This document shows positions 5,852 to 16,479 of a DNA stretch of 64,000 nucleotides, one piece after another. Every line of letters begins with the position of its first letter. Positions within the stretch are counted from its first letter, which is position 1. Source of the DNA: Scyliorhinus canicula (lineage: Eukaryota); the NCBI RefSeq assembly GCF_902713615.1, contig NC_052175.1:8573941-8637940 (forward strand), written 5' to 3'. The notes beneath the pieces were generated by a model. That model worked only from the letters and a program-made list of their open reading frames with translations, was not told the DNA's origin and did no database searches. The translations under genes were made by a program, and so were the position numbers.

Positions 5852-6513
5852 AGAACAAAGAACAAAGAACGAAGTAAAGTACAGGTAAGAATTAGGCCCT
5901 TCGGCCCTCCAAGCCTATACCGACCATGCTGCACGTCTAAACTAAAATCTTCTACACCTCTGTGCTCCGTATCCCTCTATTCCCATCCTGATCATGTATT
6001 AGTCAAGATGCCCCTTAAACGTCATTATCGTCCCTGCTTCCACTACATCCTCCGGCAGCGAGTTCCAAGCACCCTCTACCCTCTGTGAAAAAGACTTGTC
6101 TCGTATATCTCCCATAAAACTTGCCAGTCGCACCACAAACCTATGAACCCTCCAGACTGGCAAAAAGCCTCTGACTAGCCACTCTATCTATGCCCATCAT
6201 AATTTTGTAGACGTCTATCAGGTCGCCCCTCAACCCGTCGTTCCAGTGAGAACAAACCGAGTTCATTCAACTCTCCTCATAGCTAATGCTCTCCATACCA
6301 GGCAACATCCTTGTTAATTTCTTCTGCACCCTCACTAAAGCCTCCATATCCTTCTGGTAGTGTGGCGACCAAAATTGAACACTATCCTCCAAGTGTGGCA
6401 CAACTAAGGTTCTATACAGCGGCAACATAAGTTACCATTTTTATACTCAATACCCCGGCCAATGTAGGCAAGCATGTCGTGTGCCTTCTTAACTATCTTC
6501 TCCACCTGTGTTG
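5852..6513 (-). mobile_element. CR1 LINE 3' fragment, target of the LTR element insertion (resumes at 16335)
   Basis: (AAAGAAC)n tail at ~5852-5872 and CR1 3' sequence; ...ctccacctgtGTTG | GTTGctcctatcagtgacctg reads as contiguous CR1 sequence across the insertion. Confidence 0.8.
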
Positions 6514-7465
6514 TGTTGCACGTTTTACTATGGGCGTAAAACGCGTTTATTGGAGTGTATTAACACGCCTCCGAGTTCGACGTGTGCTTAACACTGCTAG
6601 GCTCTGTTCTATGTAATTATTTAAGCTCTGGAGTCGCCAGCTGCCGTATAGGCAACGTCACAAGTATTCCAAGGCCAAATTCAAAGTAATAAAGACGATA
6701 CACCGATTAGTCAAGTTCAAACGATCAATATTTATTATACAGTTAATAATAAATACTCATGCACACACACTAAGAGACTAAGCTACAACTAAACATAAGC
6801 AAACAGAATACTTATCTAACAGGAACAGGCAAGGTCAGAGAACGAGGCCTTCGTCCTGGTTTTGTCTGCAGCCTTCAGCAAGCGTTCTGGCACTTGGGAG
6901 TCTAGCGGGCTTGGATCGCGTAGCGAGCGTTGAACTTACGGTTTCGGCGGCTGGTGCTCAACGGCTGGAGTCAGGATACCAGGTGTCAGTCGGGGCCGGA
7001 GCACAGGTTTAACAGACCGGACAACACGAGGTCCCTATCTTTTATAGGGGTTCCGTTGTCCTTCCCTCTTCTCGGGCGGGCTCTACCTATTGGATCAATT
7101 TCTTATCGATACTGGATTAATTCCCCAATGCGAGGGGGTCTCCGTGATGGAGGGGGCGTTTCTTATGTCCTTTTGTTCGGAGGTTTCTGGTGCCTCGATG
7201 TCTGGGTCTTGATTGGAATGTGTCCATTCAGAACCAAATGTATCTATTGTGTGGGTGTTCAAGTCTGATGGCCTCATTAGCATGCAAAGCGTTTTGCCAT
7301 TTGCACCTAGCTAAGGTCTCTTTACCTGAGCCCAAACTGGTTTCTGCTGCTGCAGAATGCAAACTGCTCTTTGCAGACTGCTGTTCTGGCTGAACTGTCT
7401 GTTTCCCAGCAGCCTTCCATTTTAGTTTGGCTCAGTGTCCATTTTGCGTGGCCAGCATGGCTACA
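6514..7465 (-). repeat. 3' LTR (952 bp)
   Basis: Direct repeat of 15383-16334; only one difference seen (C6675 vs T15544); minus strand starts TGTAGCC and ends GTGCAACA. Confidence 0.97.
6731..6736 (-). terminator. Candidate polyadenylation signal AATAAA in 3' LTR
   Basis: TTTATT on plus, ~310 nt downstream of the LTR TATA box in element orientation; a second AATAAA lies nearer the LTR end. Confidence 0.5.
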
Positions 7466-7475
7466 TTCCCTCCTT
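7466..7475 (-). other. Polypurine tract
   Basis: Minus strand AAGGAGGGAA immediately precedes the TG of the 3' LTR. Confidence 0.85.
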
Positions 7476-7795: not shown

Positions 7796-8149
7796 TTACA
7801 GAGTGTTGTAATCAGTGAGGGGTTGAGGGGTTTGGTGGAATCCGAAGATGGGGGATTGCACTCTATAGATGGGTGAGGTGCTGGAACGAGAGGCTCTCCT
7901 CTTCCATTTCCTCAACCTGAGGGTCTGCACTAGGATGGTGAGGATCGCAATCACCAACAGTGATTCGATTATGTAGGACATGGAGTACCACGTCATGAAT
8001 TTAGTACGCCAGGTCTGAACCTCGCTGATCAGAGCTGAGCACTGGGGGTTTGCTGTACTAACATTTATGGTGGGGGTTGTGGGGGAAACGTGTCTTGTTT
8101 CCACACATATACATATGACATTAAATAGTAATAAGTGGGCTTCCATCAT
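7796..8149 (-). CDS. 117-aa putative single-pass membrane protein in the env position of the retroelement
   Basis: MMEAHLLLFNVICICVET (signal-like), ~36-aa ectodomain with NVS sequon, hydrophobic YIIESLLVIAILTILVQTL, basic RLRKWKRR, C-terminal YNTL. Frame is open from a CAG acceptor at 8252; no other ATG between the acceptor and 8149. Confidence 0.6.
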   Translation of the reverse strand: MMEAHLLLFNVICICVETRHVSPTTPTINVSTANPQCSALISEVQTWRTKFMTWYSMSYIIESLLVIAILTILVQTLRLRKWKRRASRSSTSPIYRVQSPIFGFHQTPQPLTDYNTL

Positions 8150-9087
8150 TTTGCTGTTCTTCCTCTTTCTCTTCCTTCTTCCTCCGGTATTGACAATCCT
8201 GGCTTCGACCTCTGTCTCGTCCTTTGAAACCTTTGGGATCAAGCACAGTATCTGTCAATACACAGTTTAAGACCTTTACTTGTTAGTGCATCTGTCTTTC
8301 AAAACCCAATTGACCCTTTAAAATGACTGGCTAAGTCACACCCTGTGACTCCCCTCATTTTTTTTTTTTCAAAAAGCGAATTTAAAGACCAGCATACACC
8401 TAACAATCCTTCCTTCTGCGAGCCGTCTCGCAGGCTTTGCTGATTTACCATCCGAATGTTTCCGGATGTAAATAGCATGTGGGATGGCGGCCGAAGGGCT
8501 ACCTAACCTAAAATGAAAACAAATTTGGAAAGAAACATCCGAATGAGTTGCGTATGGGCCGCTACGGGTAAGAGTTGGATGGGATCCCCGGGTAGGGCGT
8601 GCTGTGCCATACCCGAGCTTGGCTGACCAAGGGTTGGTTCTCAGACAGGGCGGGTCCTCAGTGCCGTTTGTCCACTGCCTGAGTAACCTGGAGAAAACGG
8701 GTACGAATGTGTTAACCATGACTTGCAGCCTCTATTTCGCCGAATAGAGGGGCACCTAAAAAACCAAGGGAGCCAAGATGCTCCAACTGAGGACATCACT
8801 GAAGTTCTCAGAGATATCTGCAGACAAACTATTTGGCGTGTGGCCTTACAACTTTGGAAAGGATCTCCAATCAAACCGAAGTTCTCAAAAGTTTCGGCAG
8901 ACAAGCTAACGTGTATGTGAGGTGGTCACAATCTTTTCAGCTGAAAAGAAGATGTCCATCCTCCAACTGAAACATTTACATTCCTGAAAACAAACAAACA
9001 TAAAACGAAGACAAACATACGTGCAGGTTCCATCAGAAAGGACATCGTTTCCCTCAAACGATTCCTATCTTACATCATCTGGACACC

Positions 9088-12000
9088 TCACTTTGATTCT
9101 GCCTCTGTGAACAGGGTCACAAAGGGGTTGCCGTGGCGGGAGTCAGACACCGTGTCGTCCTGCTCTCCCGGATCCCACACCCTTGTGTGGATCAGGCATG
9201 CTATTTTGGAGTTGTGTGACCGGGGGTCACTCTCGTCATTGCGGACAAGTCTGTAGGAATTGTCCCTGTGCCATTGTGTAGCGTCGAGTGTGTTGTCGGG
9301 GTAGTCGGGGTCGGGTGGTGGGTCTGGGTTTTTGAGGTAGGTGACTTCCATGGGATCACTGGAGTCGGGGTCGTAGGTGGTGCAGTGTGGGCTGTATGGC
9401 TGTGTGGTGTCGCTGTCTTCAGAGTCAGTGTCTGTCCTACTGTCTCTGCTGTGGCAGCTTGTGGGCGTGTCGGGGCGTGGTCTGTAGTGGTCTGTGGGCG
9501 GAGTCGTGGGCGAGTTCGTGGATGAACTGGTCTGTGAGGAGGATGGTGGAAAAGTGTCTCTGGCGGGCGGGGTGAAGTGTTCTGCTGCATCCAGCAGGAC
9601 ATGGTGAGCATGGTTGGCCTGTGTTCCATATGCCTTTAACTGGTTGATATGGAACCACGCGGTCTTCCCATTAGGATACTTTATCCTGTAAACGGAGGGG
9701 CTAATTTTGTCCGAAATTGAGTAGGGACCGGAATATTTTGGAGCCAAAAAACTGCTGGGGTTATAAACAGATAACATTACCTGTTGCCCAACCTGGAATT
9801 CTGTGGTGTGTACGGTCTTATTGAAACAGGCAGTCCGTTGCTGTCGGCGTTTCCCTAGCTGGACTGCGGCTGCGAGCTGTGCAGACCTCACAGTCTCAAC
9901 TAGATCTCTAACTGCCTTTTCATGTGTGAGGGCCGTCACTTCGGGGCTTGTCATGTCCAGTCCTAAAAGGAATTCTGTACCTTTCATAGGGCGTCCGGTC
10001 ATGAGTGTGTGTGGTGTGTATCCTGTCGATGTGGAGACAGTGTTCCTTATGAACATAAGTGCAAAGGGGAGCACTGAATCCCATGTGGAATTGTTCTGTT
10101 GTACCATTTTCCTAAGGGTAGTTTTTAGGGTCCGATTCATGCGCTCCACAATCCCGCTGGACTGTGGATGATACGCAATGTGGAAGTTCTGTTTGATTCC
10201 GAATATTGTCAGGACGTTCCTCATGACCCGTCCTGTAAAGTGAGATCCCTGGTCCGAATCGATACTTCGGGGTAAACCCCATCTCGTGAAGATGTGGTGG
10301 GTCAGGATCTTTGCAGCTGTCTTTGCTGTATTTGTTCGCGAGGGAAATGCCTCTACCCACTTGGTAAAGGTGTCTATCACCACCAGAACGTATTTATAGC
10401 CATTCCTACAAGGGGGCAATGGACCTATAAAGTCGATCTGGAGGTTTGTCCAAGGGCCGTTAACTGGGCGAGTATGCCGAAGTTGTGCTTTCTTAGAATA
10501 CCTGTCCGGGTTATTCTGAGCACAAATCAGGCAATTCTCTATGTAGTGCGTTACATCATTCCTGAGATTAGGCCACCAACAGAGTTGCCTGAGGTGCCTC
10601 GTTGTTGCATCAATTCCCTGATGCCCGTGTCCGTCATGGAACAAGGCAATCATCTGATTCCTGTCCTGCTGTGGGACCACATAAAGTCGGTCCTTAATGA
10701 TCACACCCTCATGTGTGGTCAGTGCGTGTTTAAAGTGCTCGTAAGCAGGCACAAAGTTTCCCTTGAAAACCTCCCTGAGGTCTCCGTCCTGTTTTTGTGC
10801 TGCCACGAGATCTTTAATATCAGTCTGTGAGACTTGGACTGCGCTCACAGGGGCGCTAGCTGGTGCGCTAGCTGGGGGGGTCCATAAGTGTCCTCTCCTG
10901 GAACCTGCCTTAGCCAACGCGTCGGCTTTTACATTCCCAGGGGGTGATGACCTATGGTGACTTCTTACTTTTATTATGCCGAAGGTCCTGTCCTTCGCTT
11001 TCTCTAGGATATGCTGGAGTAAGGGGGCTGATGGAAGGGGTTTTCCGTCTGCGGAGACAAAACCTCGTGTCCTCCACAGGGGCAGAAAATCGGTTAAACT
11101 GTTACAGACATATAAGCTGTCTGAATATATGTCTGCTGGGCTGGGGAAAGAATCGGGGTGGTCCACTATGTACGCTATGGCTGCTAGCTCCGCTGCCTGC
11201 GCGCCTAAGTGACCTGGTAACTTAAGAGCTATCTCTTCGAGAGCGCGCCCCTGCGCGTCCTCTACATAGATGCCGCATCCTGTGATACGCTCACCATTTA
11301 AAACTGTGGAGGAACCGTCTACATAAATCCTCAAGGGTCCACACGTGTCTGTGGGCTGGGGGCTTTGTTTCGGGTTCCCTATCTTCCTGGGGGGTGTTTT
11401 GGCTAAAAAGGGTCCTGTGTTGTGCAGGGGAGCTACAATTTCACAGTCATGGGGCTGTCCGGGGTATTGGAGGTTGTCGGCTAAGTATGTGTGTGTGCGT
11501 GTCCGTTTCACTGTAATGTCCCGTCCTTGTAAAAGTAGGGTCCACCTAGCTGCCCTAATCTGGCTAACTGAACCGTCCTTCAGTCGACCGTCTAGTAGTA
11601 GCTGTGTGGGTGTGTGTTCGGTTAGAATGGTGATGGGGTTGAGTCCGGTGATGTATGAGAAATACTGCACTGCCCAGAAGACAGCAAGGAGGTGCCTCTC
11701 ACAGGCTGAAAATCCTTGTTCTACTGGGTCTAACAGTCGGGAGGCATAAGCCACTGGTCTTAGCTGCTCGTGCCGTTCTTGAAGCAACACGGCCGAGAGG
11801 GTCAGATCGGTGCTCGCTACCTCTATTGCGTACGGTGAAAGTTGGTCGGGGACTAGCAGCGCGGGTGCTGCACTGAGGGCTCGTTTCAACTCTTCCACAG
11901 CGCCTGTATGCTGCGGAAGCCATTCCCAGGGGGCTCCTTTCTTAAGGAGGTCTGAAAGTGGGGCGGCTTTTGTCGCGAATCCGTCGATGTGGTTCCGACA

Positions 12001-13314
12001 ATAGCCAACCAGTCCTAAAAACGACCGGAGGGCTGATACATTTTGGGGAAGGGGCAATTTGACGATCGAATCAATTCTTTTGAATTCGATCTCGCGTTTG
12101 CCGTGCGTGATGACTGATCCCAAATACATCACTTTACTTTCCAATATTTGGGCCTTTTTCGGGTTAACTTTACAGCCAATTTCAGTTAAGAGTTCTAGGA
12201 GTTCGGCCAGAAGCGAAATGTGCTCTGCCTTTGTGTCTGTCTGCAGTAGTAGGTCGTCTACATACTGTACCAGACATTCGGGTCGGGAAAATTTTTCTAA
12301 TCCACTTGCCAGCTGTCGGTGGAAAATGGAGGGGGAATTGTGGAATCCTTGTGGGAGGCATGTCCACGTGTACTGCTGTGTTTTAAAAGTGAATGCGAAT
12401 TTGTATTGGCACGCTTTTGCCAATGGTATTGACCAGAATCCATTACTGATGTCCAATACCGTGAAGTACTTGGCGTTGAGACCCTGCTTGAGCATGGTCT
12501 CGGGACTAGTAGCTACCGTTGGGGCTACTGCGGGGGTTACTTTGTTGAGTTCCCGATAATCGATGGTCAGACGCCATGATCCATCGGGCTTCCTCACTGG
12601 CCAAATAGGGGCATTGTTGGTGGAGGCTACCGTTCTCAGTACACCTTGGTCCAACAAGCTGCCTATAACTTTTTCTATTTCCACCTCTGCCTCGAGGGGA
12701 AATCTATACTGCTTTTGCGGTCGGGGGTCCTGTCCGGTAACATGAACTTGTCCAGTCATTCTGCCACAGTCATGACGGTGACTTGCAAATGCTGTCCTGT
12801 GTTTGTTCAGTAGGGCCTTAATTTGTCGGTCGGTGTGGAGCGTAGTCAGGTCGAATGAGTACTCTCCCACTGCGCTAATCCGATTAGCGTAGTCTCCTAC
12901 TGTGAGGGTGGCTGGGGCTCTGTCTGATCTCGCCATTCGCCAGACACACTGGTTCACTGGGTCGAACGACAAGCTGTGAGCGTTCATAAAATCTATCCCC
13001 AGGATGTGCTCTGCCGTCCGGGGAAGATTTACTAAAACTACGGGGTGCCTTGTGCTAATGTTCCCTAGCTGGATCGCTACGGGTGCTGTGATATGTCCCT
13101 GCTGCGAGTGTCCGGTGAACCCGCTAAGTGTGATGGTGGAGGTGGTCGGCCACGTGTCTGCGTGTGCCGTGGTTGTGGAGTTAATGGTGGTGCGGGATCC
13201 TCCTGTGTCCCACAATAACTCTATGGGCTTCCCTTTGACTTTTGCCGTGACTACGGGCCTCCCTGATGAGTCCCATAGTGTGTCACAGACCCAAGTGGGG
13301 GAGCCCGAACACCG
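9088..13314 (-). CDS. pol: Pol polyprotein (protease, RT, degenerate RNase H tether, RNase H, integrase, low-complexity C-terminal extension)
   Basis: LLWDTGG protease; LPQGFHNSP and YVDD (12253-12264) RT; IEVAST...ERHL...TEH degenerate Ty3-type RNase H; IYVDGS...AELAAI...YSDS...GNVKAD second RNase H; HHCC plus D-D-E integrase (QIDFIGP, DSDQGSHF, GIVERMN). Frame is open up to the gag stop. Confidence 0.96.
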   Translation of the reverse strand, partial: RCSGSPTWVCDTLWDSSGRPVVTAKVKGKPIELLWDTGGSRTTINSTTTAHADTWPTTSTITLSGFTGHSQQGHITAPVAIQLGNISTRHPVVLVNLPRTAEHILGIDFMNAHSLSFDPVNQCVWRMARSDRAPATLTVGDYANRISAVGEYSFDLTTLHTDRQIKALLNKHRTAFASHRHDCGRMTGQVHVTGQDPRPQKQYRFPLEAEVEIEKVIGSLLDQGVLRTVASTNNAPIWPVRKPDGSWRLTIDYRELNKVTPAVAPTVATSPETMLKQGLNAKYFTVLDISNGFWSIPLAKACQYKFAFTFKTQQYTWTCLPQGFHNSPSIFHRQLASGLEKFSRPECLVQYVDDLLLQTDTKAEHISLLAELLELLTEIGCKVNPKKAQILESKVMYLGSVITHGKREIEFKRIDSIVKLPLPQNVSALRSFLGLVGYCRNHIDGFATKAAPLSDLLKKGAPWEWLPQHTGAVEELKRALSAAPALLVPDQLSPYAIEVASTDLTLSAVLLQERHEQLRPVAYASRLLDPVEQGFSACERHLLAVFWAVQYFSYITGLNPITILTEHTPTQLLLDGRLKDGSVSQIRAARWTLLLQGRDITVKRTRTHTYLADNLQYPGQPHDCEIVAPLHNTGPFLAKTPPRKIGNPKQSPQPTDTCGPLRIYVDGSSTVLNGERITGCGIYVEDAQGRALEEIALKLPGHLGAQAAELAAIAYIVDHPDSFPSPADIYSDSLYVCNSLTDFLPLWRTRGFVSADGKPLPSAPLLQHILEKAKDRTFGIIKVRSHHRSSPPGNVKADALAKAGSRRGHLWTPPASAPASAPVSAVQVSQTDIKDLVAAQKQDGDLREVFKGNFVPAYEHFKHALTTHEGVIIKDRLYVVPQQDRNQMIALFHDGHGHQGIDATTRHLRQLCWWPNLRNDVTHYIENCLICAQNNPDRYSKKAQLRHTRPVNGPWTNLQIDFIGPLPPCRNGYKYVLVVIDTFTKWVEAFPSRTNTAKTAAKILTHHIFTRWGLPRSIDSDQGSHFTGRVMRNVLTIFGIKQNFHIAYHPQSSGIVERMNRTLKTTLRKMVQQNNSTWDSVLPFALMFIRNTVSTSTGYTPHTLMTGRPMKGTEFLLGLDMTSPEVTALTHEKAVRDLVETVRSAQLAAAVQLGKRRQQRTACFNKTVHTTEFQVGQQVMLSVYNPSSFLAPKYSGPYSISDKISPSVYRIKYPNGKTAWFHINQLKAYGTQANHAHHVLLDAAEHFTPPARDTFPPSSSQTSSSTNSPTTPPTDHYRPRPDTPTSCHSRDSRTDTDSEDSDTTQPYSPHCTTYDPDSSDPMEVTYLKNPDPPPDPDYPDNTLDATQWHRDNSYRLVRNDESDPRSHNSKIACLIHTRVWDPGEQDDTVSDSRHGNPFVTLFTEAESK

Positions 13315-15063
13315 TCAGTTCGTCTCGTCCACATTGGTGGGTCCTGACTGTACTGCTACATTGTGGATGGGTTTTGCTTTGTTGCGGTTCAGAGTGCCTG
13401 TCTGCTGGCCTCTCTGAGATCGCTGGGGTGCATTACACTCTTTTGCCCAATGCCCTAACTGTCCACAGTTATAGCATTCCTGTCCTTTCAGTTGAGGGCT
13501 GCTCTTGCCTTCATTTACCCATGCGGGCTTCTGGTGCTCTCTGACTGCTTGGATATCTGCAGCAGCCTGAGCCTCTTCTGGGGATCTAACCTTTCCTTTT
13601 GCCTGAAGCGATTGCTCCCAAGCGCGGGACAATCTTTTGAGGACCCATTTTTCGTTATGGGCCTCTTCTGAGGGGTCGTAATTATTGCAAGCGCTCTGTC
13701 CTGCTTCTGTTGCGTGTGAGATAATTGTGCGCGTCCACTTAACCATGTTTTCGCGGGTTAAATGCGCTCTATCTAGCTGTCCGAAAACTGCGCTGAAGTG
13801 AATCCACAGCCTTCCTGCGAATGCTGTGGGGTGTTCGGATCTCTTCTGCCTGCACTTATTCAAGCCTTCTACGGGGTCACCTCTATTGTACCCGATGGCA
13901 TCTAAAATGGCAGTGTGCATCTCCTCTAGGCTGCCTCCTGCCACGTTTTGTGGGTCGGGGAGGGCTGCCACTACACTCTGGTCTAAGCTCAGCACGGTGA
14001 GCTTAACCTGCTCTCTCTCATCCAGGCCGTACATGGTAGCCTGCTGTTTTACTTTCGCAAAGAACTGGTGGGGGTCTGCGGTGGGGAGGAACGGAGTGAT
14101 CTTTTCACAAGCGTCCCTTAGCTGGGTTACGGTTAAAGGGGTGGTGTAAGTTATGTCTGGGGCGCCTTCTGATTCGGCTTTCCTCTGTGTGGTTACGGGA
14201 TTCATGGGTGCGGTTATGATCTGAGCTGTGGGGGGTTGGGGTGCCTGTCGTTTCTGCTGAGCTGCGGGCGCACATGTTCCCTGAACATAACGCTGCGCTG
14301 TCTCGCTTAATTCCTGCCAATCTGGGGCGTTTTCCCCATCTAACTGAGCTCCAAAGGTGCTTTGGAAGCCATTCTGCACCGAAAGCAGAGATTGCAGTTC
14401 CGCAATCTGTTTCCTGCATTTCGCGTGGTCAACTGTGCTTTGTCTTTGTTCGGTTGTTGCAGCATGGAGTGCTCTCAAAGCTGCTTTGAGATCGGAACAT
14501 TGCCTCTGCAATGCCTCCACCTGCTTTTCCGATTCCTGTCTTATCAGAACGGCACGTTGCACGTCCTGATAGGCTTTCTCATACTGGGTCTGGGAACTGT
14601 TCAGATGAGCTAGACAAGACTGGTGAGCCCTCTTGGCATCATCCACCTCTCTACCCTTCTCTGCCAACTTCCCTTTAAGATCCAGGTTTTCTTTCTCGAT
14701 GTCCCTGACATCGACCTTACTCATTCGGTTCCTTTCCTCTAAATCTGCCCGGAGCGTCCTGATGACCTCCTCTGCGCCTCGCAACTGTGCCAAGCAGGAC
14801 ACAATCGCCATCGGCTTGCGTGCTTTACTTAAACTCTTTTTGTGTATCTGAGAGAGGTTCTCCCACCAAGTATGACCTATACTTCCGGGACCTGTCTCCT
14901 CATTTGCACAAAACTCTTTCCAAAGGGGCCATCCCTTTCCTTGTAAGTATTTGCGGAGTTCCAGCTCCCACGTGGGACACTGGCCTACTCTGCTACTGCT
15001 GCTGGTCGCTGCGACCACAAACTTTGCTGGATCCATCAGGCGTTCCATTGCCTGCATGGCCAT
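13315..15063 (-). CDS. gag: Gag (582 aa): coiled coil, capsid-like region, one CCHC zinc knuckle
   Basis: Uninterrupted ORF after the PBS; CYNCGQLGHWAKEC knuckle; QKRSEHPTAFAGRL MHR-like motif; same frame as pol. Confidence 0.93.
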   Translation of the reverse strand: MAMQAMERLMDPAKFVVAATSSSSRVGQCPTWELELRKYLQGKGWPLWKEFCANEETGPGSIGHTWWENLSQIHKKSLSKARKPMAIVSCLAQLRGAEEVIRTLRADLEERNRMSKVDVRDIEKENLDLKGKLAEKGREVDDAKRAHQSCLAHLNSSQTQYEKAYQDVQRAVLIRQESEKQVEALQRQCSDLKAALRALHAATTEQRQSTVDHAKCRKQIAELQSLLSVQNGFQSTFGAQLDGENAPDWQELSETAQRYVQGTCAPAAQQKRQAPQPPTAQIITAPMNPVTTQRKAESEGAPDITYTTPLTVTQLRDACEKITPFLPTADPHQFFAKVKQQATMYGLDEREQVKLTVLSLDQSVVAALPDPQNVAGGSLEEMHTAILDAIGYNRGDPVEGLNKCRQKRSEHPTAFAGRLWIHFSAVFGQLDRAHLTRENMVKWTRTIISHATEAGQSACNNYDPSEEAHNEKWVLKRLSRAWEQSLQAKGKVRSPEEAQAAADIQAVREHQKPAWVNEGKSSPQLKGQECYNCGQLGHWAKECNAPQRSQRGQQTGTLNRNKAKPIHNVAVQSGPTNVDETN

Positions 15064-15347
15064 TTCCTCTGACTCTCTTTGTATAATTTGGAACAGGGGG
15101 TTGCTGGGGTGGTGTTTTGAGAAAAGGGTACGGCTTACGCTATTTTCCGATCACAAAACTACCGAAAGTTTGTCGCAACAAAAAGCTTTCAGTTTTACCT
15201 TACAGCCCTGTTAGTACGCATGCACTAAAACACACTTCCGAATTTCGCTTATTATTTTGAACACCTTGAATACTTGTGATCTCTTTCTTTCTCTGCAATT
15301 TGGAGTTCTAATTCAAATTTCAGGGTCCTGGACACTGTGGTGTTTCC

Positions 15348-15353: not shown

Positions 15354-15359
15354 AACAGG

Positions 15360-15377
15360 GTCCCGGCGGAGTCGCCA
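15360..15377 (-). other. Primer-binding site for tRNA-Arg(UCU)
   Basis: TGGCGACTCCGCCGGGAC is the 18-nt complement of GUCCCGGCGGAGUCGCCA, the 3' end of vertebrate tRNA-Arg-TCT as I recall it; 5 nt from the LTR end. Confidence 0.85.
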
Positions 15378-15382
15378 CTAAA

Positions 15383-16334
15383 TGTTGCACGTTTTACTAT
15401 GGGCGTAAAACGCGTTTATTGGAGTGTATTAACACGCCTCCGAGTTCGACGTGTGCTTAACACTGCTAGGCTCTGTTCTATGTAATTATTTAAGCTCTGG
15501 AGTCGCCAGCTGCCGTATAGGCAACGTCACAAGTATTCCAAGGTCAAATTCAAAGTAATAAAGACGATACACCGATTAGTCAAGTTCAAACGATCAATAT
15601 TTATTATACAGTTAATAATAAATACTCATGCACACACACTAAGAGACTAAGCTACAACTAAACATAAGCAAACAGAATACTTATCTAACAGGAACAGGCA
15701 AGGTCAGAGAACGAGGCCTTCGTCCTGGTTTTGTCTGCAGCCTTCAGCAAGCGTTCTGGCACTTGGGAGTCTAGCGGGCTTGGATCGCGTAGCGAGCGTT
15801 GAACTTACGGTTTCGGCGGCTGGTGCTCAACGGCTGGAGTCAGGATACCAGGTGTCAGTCGGGGCCGGAGCACAGGTTTAACAGACCGGACAACACGAGG
15901 TCCCTATCTTTTATAGGGGTTCCGTTGTCCTTCCCTCTTCTCGGGCGGGCTCTACCTATTGGATCAATTTCTTATCGATACTGGATTAATTCCCCAATGC
16001 GAGGGGGTCTCCGTGATGGAGGGGGCGTTTCTTATGTCCTTTTGTTCGGAGGTTTCTGGTGCCTCGATGTCTGGGTCTTGATTGGAATGTGTCCATTCAG
16101 AACCAAATGTATCTATTGTGTGGGTGTTCAAGTCTGATGGCCTCATTAGCATGCAAAGCGTTTTGCCATTTGCACCTAGCTAAGGTCTCTTTACCTGAGC
16201 CCAAACTGGTTTCTGCTGCTGCAGAATGCAAACTGCTCTTTGCAGACTGCTGTTCTGGCTGAACTGTCTGTTTCCCAGCAGCCTTCCATTTTAGTTTGGC
16301 TCAGTGTCCATTTTGCGTGGCCAGCATGGCTACA
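15383..16334 (-). repeat. 5' LTR (952 bp)
   Basis: Near-identical to 6514-7465, followed by the PBS. Confidence 0.97.
15909..15915 (-). promoter_or_regulatory. LTR TATA box with upstream CCAAT
   Basis: Minus strand TATAAAA, with CCAAT at ~15958-15962 about 45 nt upstream. Confidence 0.7.
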
Positions 16335-16479
16335 GTTGCTCCTATCAGTGACCTGCGGTCATCATCAAGACGATAAGAGATTGCAAATATCTGACGTGCG
16401 ATACATCGGGGTGTCCTAGCGCATGAATCACAGTGTGCAGGCACAGCAAGTAATTGGGGAATCTAACAGAACGTTTACC

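Follow-up and report, generated by a model that had tools for sequence, protein, structure and literature searches.

The catshark Scyliorhinus canicula carries a family of SnRV-like ERVs in which a small gene takes the place of env and appears, as judged from sequence, to encode a new family of membrane proteins under selection. All subfamilies examined have the gene at the position of env, and purifying selection acts on it as strongly as on the reverse transcriptase (RT), points of which we are nearly certain. ERVs that lack env are thought to turn into purely intracellular retrotransposons. The catshark family lacks env and has been highly amplified, with recent activity, yet it holds a predicted surface protein as tightly as RT. 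Such elements would be missed by screens that demand an intact env or a myristoylation motif, as those outlined in PMC10435555 and PMC11952523. All coordinates below refer to the window, that is, the whole stretch of 64,000 nucleotides of S. canicula DNA that was analyzed, and genome searches refer to the best 150 of about 5,200 candidates, which were the ones scored.

Structure, age and affinities of the element

The element is an intact and young LTR retrovirus of 9.8 kb, located on the minus strand of the window, with open gag and pol frames. Its 3' LTR (952 nt, 6514-7465) and its 5' LTR (15383-16334) differ at 1 of 952 nt and are bordered by the two copies of a 4-bp target site duplication, GTTG (left copy 6510-6513, right copy 16335-16338); the youth and integrity ascribed to the element in a preliminary description of this DNA are thus borne out. 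A polypurine tract (PPT) was read from the sequence at 7466-7475, and a primer-binding site complementary to tRNA-Arg(TCT) lies at 15360-15377, ARAGORN having called a tRNA at one of three loci (all features of the element are on the minus strand). Read from its first Met, gag (13315-15063) encodes a protein with no Gly2, a coiled coil and one CCHC knuckle. The pol gene (9088-13314) follows in frame after the gag stop and encodes protease, RT, tether, RNase H, integrase (IN) and an SH3-like domain, Pol containing both the tether and a second RNase H. At the junction (13309-13317), gag terminates with TGA-CGG and pol continues in frame. UGA readthrough has been reported in some fish retroviruses, and UAG readthrough in SnRV. 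The site of insertion is an older dispersed repeat (6291-6513), which we take to be akin to a CR1-type LINE fragment; elsewhere, the window holds several SINE-like repeats and a long tract of GA-rich simple repeats, strongly skewed between the strands (54800-62200). The LTR pairs of five older copies of the family diverge by 2.7 to 5%, which would correspond, roughly, to 27 to 50 million years at the rate assumed in PMC10699275.

A non-coding block upstream of the small gene (8335-8690) is a candidate cis-acting element: it shows 75 to 88% identity to older elements, which exceeds that of the small gene's DNA. It could be an internal promoter, or an export or packaging element; the 3' region of SnRV is described as acting in cis (PMC12193657). 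The block showed no strong fold (z of -1.7 to +1.4 in 6 copies), and double-sided change affected only 2 of 60 predicted pairs. A 120-aa frame at 8369-8731 was considered as a gene and dropped, the frame not being kept among relatives.

On the resemblance of its RT, its Gag and its stop-readthrough layout, we classify the element as SnRV-like. Its RT is close to those of SnRV and of SnRV-like ERVs, including CmiERV lineage I, and is identical to that of SnRV at about 77 of 131 aligned residues, counted by hand in the supplementary alignment of PMC7947760. As in SnRV, according to PMC2717909, gag-pol would be expressed through stop readthrough, and Gag is unmyristoylated, with a coiled coil and one zinc finger. 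SnRV is described as having a full Env, four accessory ORFs and UAG readthrough, whereas in the catshark family Env is absent, a single small ORF is present and the stop is TGA. The nearest database relatives of Pol are amphibian and coelacanth proteins (42 to 49%), the close ones being labelled NYNRIN-like. A quick RT tree, in which no named SnRV row was included, placed the group of the window's element apart from gamma/epsilon-type and Gypsy RTs, and IMG/VR, scanned for a record of SnRV, yielded nothing beyond two distant loci.

An initial reading of the element as a lokiretrovirus was abandoned, because its RT is SnRV-like and because the sharks screened in PMC7947760 are not marked positive in the rows seen. 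Lokiretroviruses also have a tether and a second RNase H, but their Env is paramyxovirus-F-like according to the same paper, and the catshark element has neither an F-like Env (PF00523) nor a Loki-type RT; the PF00523 search across the genome gave no match, but no control matched either. Another ERV family is known from the same species, ERV-Spuma.0-Sca (PMC10699275). It is distinct, with an LTR of 866 nt that starts differently and an env CDS of 1326 nt, and, unlike the catshark element, it groups with fish foamy-like ERVs.

A small gene in the env slot

Between pol, which ends at 9088, and the 3' LTR, that is, in the env slot, the minus-strand frame 8251-7796 is open, with its first Met at 8149 and its stop at 7796. 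This small ORF of 117 aa (7796-8149) is predicted from hydropathy, conservation and dN/dS to encode a type I membrane glycoprotein. All the motifs listed in the preliminary description for a 117-aa ORF were recovered in this frame; its placement in the env slot holds as well, but not 'next to the PPT', the stop lying about 320 nt away from it.

The ORF is open in all 30 loci retrieved by DNA search. Of 40 copies picked through their integrase (selected by hand from 150 integrase matches and enriched for broken pol), 38 have the full-length ORF and 2 a frameshifted one. Taken over 69 young copies, of which the DNA search supplied 29 and the integrase picks 40, distinct frameshifting indels numbered 2 in the ORF (351 nt), compared to 43 in the spacer on its 5' side (857 nt) and 17 in that on its 3' side (316 nt), both spacer counts being inflated by homopolymer runs. 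When the window copy was compared with nine older elements, the core of the protein (aa 47-111) gave a dN/dS of 0.13 at a dS of 1.16, as against 0.13 for RT, 0.09 for IN and 0.06 for Gag; the shifted sense frames gave 1.09 and 3.00, so that codon-level selection is present in the ORF's phase only. Between five subfamily groups (dS 0.65 to 1.6), dN/dS was 0.20 to 0.38 for the whole ORF, 0.10 to 0.16 for the aromatic-transmembrane-basic core, and 0.19 to 1.15 for the stalk. This last set comprises 60 open ORFs: ten duplicate places were dropped, and 16 of 76 non-duplicate loci were filtered out, mostly truly broken ones, though L037, L043 and L054 are open and failed the tail pattern only. Neither disruption nor neutral drift thus emerged from the family copies, the ORF being open in most of them with a dN/dS of 0.13, and the earlier supposition that it belongs to the active form of the element is upheld. 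Five older copies (L058, L060, L062, L072 and L073), detected via the small ORF, are internally deleted, with gag and the small ORF present and most of pol gone.

The anatomy of the protein was established on 60 open copies, 30 young and 30 older, in which its length ranges from 110 to 124 aa. Hydropathy of the window copy reveals hydrophobic stretches at aa ~4-18 and ~57-77, and the predicted topology is N-out/C-in, with one transmembrane (TM) segment after the signal segment and basic residues behind it. The predicted signal peptide (aa 1-18, 8096-8149) ends, before N/D-P, with a small-x-small motif in 28/30 older copies and in 0/30 young ones. It precedes a fast-evolving, P/T/S-rich stalk (aa 19-46, 8012-8095), delimited from its sequon and its dN/dS; the single N-x-S sequon (N29-V-S, aa 29-31) is present before the W-C position in 60/60 copies and persists through changes in its middle residue. 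An aromatic membrane-proximal segment with invariant columns follows (aa 47-59, 7973-8011), its Trp, Cys and Tyr residues being conserved ahead of the TM (W-C in 59/60); the window copy differs from its sister copies at the conserved Cys position, aa 48. The TM helix (aa 60-77, 7919-7972) contains a conserved Glu62 (Glu in 59/60), and the polybasic juxtamembrane cluster RLRKWKRR (aa 78-85, 7895-7918) occurs in 60/60. The S/P-rich cytoplasmic tail (7799-7894) carries a conserved Y-R-x-x-S-P-I-F-G-F, of which SPIFGF is found in 54/60. The terminal YNTL, listed in the preliminary description, turned out to be restricted to the young subfamily (30/30 young copies, 0/30 older).

Cysteines are distributed differently in the two sets. 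An extra ectodomain Cys at aa 37 (8039-8041) is present in 30/30 young and 0/30 older copies, so that two ectodomain Cys, ten residues apart, exist in the young subfamily only, and one in older copies. Conversely, a Cys at the cytoplasmic end of the TM (7937-7939) is found in 29/30 older and 0/30 young copies; it is possibly a palmitoylation site, and the young subfamily may have switched from acylation to a disulfide loop. A Gly2 myristoylation site was found in 0/60. The AlphaFold model (pTM 0.34) has two helices, one N-terminal and a long one at 35-90, with a low-confidence stalk. FAST proteins have an amphipathic helix behind their basic cluster; in the catshark protein the hydrophobic moment reaches 0.7 to 0.8 at aa 78-91 in 6/6 copies, a value driven by the basic cluster itself.

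Between a splice acceptor and the first Met lies a purine-rich leader (8150-8230), which is not conserved as a coding extension: in older copies, the ATG follows it at distances of any of the three phases (9, 11 and 5 of 25). RRKRKRK, formerly read as a furin- or NLS-like motif, is a translation of this leader, upstream of the Met and in variable phase to the ATG, and is no longer retained. Two candidate 3' splice AGs are present within 8231-8253, one at 8252-8253, favored in the preliminary description, and one at 8231-8232, whose homologue forms the joint of RefSeq models. In two S. canicula models, the part that aligns with the element starts right at the counterpart of the AG at 8231-8232 rather than that of 8252-8253, and the models of S. 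torazame run into the leader from this position too, in three phases. The acceptor once placed at 8251 is therefore moved 21 nt downstream, to 8230, although 8251 may serve the young subfamily; judging from the joints of these models, it looks functional. In most older copies an upstream ATG is found just before the acceptor (8240-8250) and would be removed by splicing; the young subfamily has GTG instead, which fits use of the upstream AG. As for the donor, the site proposed at 15354 did not survive, its GTAAGT being absent in 9/9 older elements. Donor-like GT sites are present at 15198-15203 (AG/GT in 9/9 older elements, GTAAG in 7/9). A branch-point-like ACTAACAG stands a few bases before the GTAAG donor-like site (15203-15216) and is found in 8/9 older elements. 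Four sequence runs from four studies, presumed to be RNA, cover 30/30 bins as contigs, a form of data that loses splice joints; the joints present in them are three short skips, none of which links the leader to the small ORF.

Ten RefSeq models from two Scyliorhinus species (P0121-P0124 and P0126-P0131) combine the small-ORF exon with other exons. Seven of those read (all but P0129) bear host names or domains: KIAA1958, SUGCT twice, B3GAT1-like, CFAP36, HEPACAM2-like and a galectin domain. The HEPACAM2-like model is an Ig-domain protein that ends in the TM and basic cluster of the ERV. It seems, from the structure of these models, that the element's acceptor hands a signal-TM-tail exon to host genes.

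Origin and possible role of the small protein

Longer, env-bearing relatives, which the preliminary description proposed to look for, were not found. The interval from the pol stop to the ATG is 862 to 983 nt in 40/40 integrase-picked copies, and the same short slot is seen in older 10-kb loci that hold the end of pol (Pol about 80 to 90% identical). The family profile, searched against longer proteins, gave 9 matches, all of them Scyliorhinus gene models that include the small-ORF exon and none an env, this search being weak for distant relatives. None of the Env hallmarks (furin site, fusion peptide, heptads, CX6CC) was recognized, the ORF having no Pfam or PDB match. Other ERV families of the genome (L089-L113) do carry a gamma-type env, some as open frames of 563 aa; their pol, where in reach, is only 26 to 43% identical to that of the small-ORF family.

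Homologues of the small protein were found within the genus. An exhaustive phmmer search returned five matches, four of which are Scyliorhinus models; the remaining one, P0125, was discarded as a low-complexity repeat. Two RefSeq proteins of S. canicula align to the genome at 100%, in agreement with a catshark host. The matches to Scyliorhinus models led to several older subfamilies of the same genome, 41 to 59% identical in the small protein. A word-based search that used the single protein came back empty, PDB sequence searches with the single protein and with the profile gave no match, and the ESM Atlas held nothing at a score of at least 0.9. Altogether, the phmmer, profile, PDB and ESM Atlas searches yielded no homologue outside Scyliorhinus. 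In the literature covered, which included few subscription papers, neither the small ORF nor any sORF2-like gene of a vertebrate retrovirus is described. The element itself may already be catalogued in Repbase or Dfam.

Our best explanation, which we favor tentatively and place somewhat short of probable, is that the small protein is a selected Env substitute that aids the direct passage of capsids between cells. A surface protein kept as tightly as RT in an env-less element is probably needed for its spread, and would be of no obvious use to a purely intracellular retrotransposon. In the mechanism we propose, a type I membrane glycoprotein of about 115 aa would replace Env in the SnRV-like catshark ERVs and would be required for their spread. 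It would be read from a subgenomic RNA via the acceptor near 8230-8251. Its signal peptide would be cleaved, so that a glycosylated stalk of about 40 aa and the aromatic membrane-proximal segment would be exposed at the cell surface; the basic cluster would aid export to, and binding of, the plasma membrane, and the conserved tail motif would recruit capsids or cytoskeletal adaptors. Where cells are in close contact, and with most benefit between follicle cell and oocyte, a protrusion or a local fusion would let capsids enter the neighboring cell. This route is modelled on the one proposed for Drosophila MDG1 sORF2 (PMC11952523).

By analogy, the proposal draws support from a layout that matches sORF2 and FAST proteins in size, short ectodomain, single TM, basic cluster and disordered tail. 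Several predicted features count against it: FAST proteins have no signal peptide and make no use of glycosylation, whereas the catshark family keeps both; Gly2 is found in 0/60 copies; the second Cys that would close a loop is confined to the young subfamily, where the TM-end Cys is missing. Moreover, a mucin-like glycosylated stalk would tend to keep membranes apart, which speaks against fusion, and sORF2 itself caused no cell fusion in heterologous assays (PMC11952523). Nothing in the phmmer, PDB, ESM and Pfam searches tied the sequence to FAST proteins or sORF2, the sORF2 sequences not being themselves compared, and the literature search on follicle-cell processes in sharks found nothing specific. 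A bolder version, which we hold to be doubtful, is that Env was replaced by an unrelated miniature fusogen, a signal-peptide-bearing and glycosylated counterpart of FAST and sORF2, that has moved capsids from soma to germ line in sharks over tens of millions of years. Were it true, it would mean Env-independent infection within Retroviridae, together with a new fusogen architecture. As the gene is about 350 nt long and the host is a laboratory model species, the question is directly testable.

The protein could instead be an accessory modulator, whose TM Glu would pair with a basic residue in the TM of a host protein (a receptor, channel or restriction factor) and whose tail would sort the complex, so that expressing cells are shielded or their survival promoted; the logic parallels that of Vpu, E5 and gJ. 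The Glu in 59/60 copies, selection that bears mainly on the TM and the juxtamembrane residues, with a drifting stalk, and a signal peptide with glycosylated stalk, which is the build of ordinary small surface glycoproteins, are all consistent with such a role. TMIE, glycophorin, M2 and UL132 are neighbors in ESM features, all below 0.9 and leads only, and SnRV also encodes small accessory ORFs (PMC12193657). Modulation leaves the exact env-slot position in an env-less lineage unexplained, however, and we regard it as rather doubtful. That position, and the acceptor, are those of env, as expected if the protein is a collapsed Env, made of the signal peptide and the membrane-proximal, TM and tail parts of an ancestral Env that lost SU and most of TM, with a tail kept to organize vesicle export or a site where capsids assemble or bud, rather than fusion. 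Env-bearing SnRV-like elements do exist in a chimaera (PMC4422223), and by eye the Trp-rich segment, the TM and the terminal Cys resemble the C-termini of other genomic ERV Envs. Nevertheless, the family profile did not match the env-bearing loci L089-L113 (best E 1.7), no intermediate-length form appeared in the 40/40 slots, the older loci or the profile search, and a dN/dS of 0.13 contradicts a decaying relic. A collapsed Env is unlikely, though such an origin can be combined with the Env-substitute explanation.

Capture of a host module, by which the aromatic-TM-basic core would come from a TMEM156-like gene and have a host-type role in signalling or trafficking, is quite improbable. Two observations suggested it. 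A weak Pfam match to TMEM156 recurs in 19 of the 26 members (best E 0.00087 at 19 bits), each time over the core and at profile positions ~169-221; and in a genome search with the TMEM156 model, all 6 matches were small-ORF family members. Yet every match is below the curated cut-off of PF15106 (19 bits at best versus 27) and spans about 50 of 226 positions; the composition of a TM followed by basic residues can yield such scores, the window copy gave no match, and no TMEM156 exon of the host came out of the search. That the sequence is non-coding, the frame being open through the youth of the copies or through constraint at the RNA level, is close to untenable. Young copies are 95 to 99% identical, so openness alone is weak proof, but between subfamilies the synonymous sites approach saturation and the core protein is nonetheless preserved, and the sequon is retained despite changes in its middle residue, which largely refutes this reading.

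Comparison with FAST proteins and sORF2

The FAST-like features reported in the preliminary description have to be divided: membership in the FAST group is not supported, while a FAST-like function gains in plausibility only, through the precedent of sORF2. Like p10, p14 and p15, the catshark protein lies within 100 to 200 aa and has one TM, an ectodomain near 40 aa, a polybasic cluster (60/60) and a disordered tail, its single-pass N-out/C-in topology being predicted. Counted from the putative cleavage point up to the Tyr that precedes the TM, the ectodomain of four older copies measures 41 to 42 aa, which is borderline for a FAST limit of about 40. FAST proteins have a reverse signal anchor in place of a signal peptide and traffic independently of glycosylation (PMC3952855 and PMC7830690), whereas the catshark protein has a hydrophobic N-terminus, with a cleavage-like motif in 28/30 older copies, and a predicted sequon in 60/60. 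FAST proteins also have a myristate or a cystine noose, neither of which is conserved in the catshark family; their acylation can also be a palmitoylated Cys, and their ectodomain fusion peptide a polyproline helix. By analogy, the protein may nonetheless work like them.

The comparison with sORF2 is based on PMC11952523. There, sORF2 belongs to insect Metaviridae, is 63 to 107 aa long with an ectodomain of about 30 aa, is mostly N-myristoylated and is made from unspliced RNA. The catshark protein falls outside this size, ectodomain length and N-myristoylation motif; unlike sORF2, it comes from a retrovirus of a vertebrate, with a splice acceptor for its gene and, in the protein, a sequon and what is predicted to be a signal peptide. 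Both systems are env-less LTR elements with the gene on the same strand as gag-pol, located downstream of pol in some lepidopteran elements as in the catshark, and both proteins are short and single-pass, N-out, with a short ectodomain, a basic patch after the TM and a low dN/dS. In Drosophila, follicle cells send protrusions into the oocyte, and sORF2 of MDG1 is found there together with capsids (PMC11952523). If cell-to-cell transfer holds true for the catshark family, the strategy of fly sORF2 would have arisen in true vertebrate retroviruses as well.
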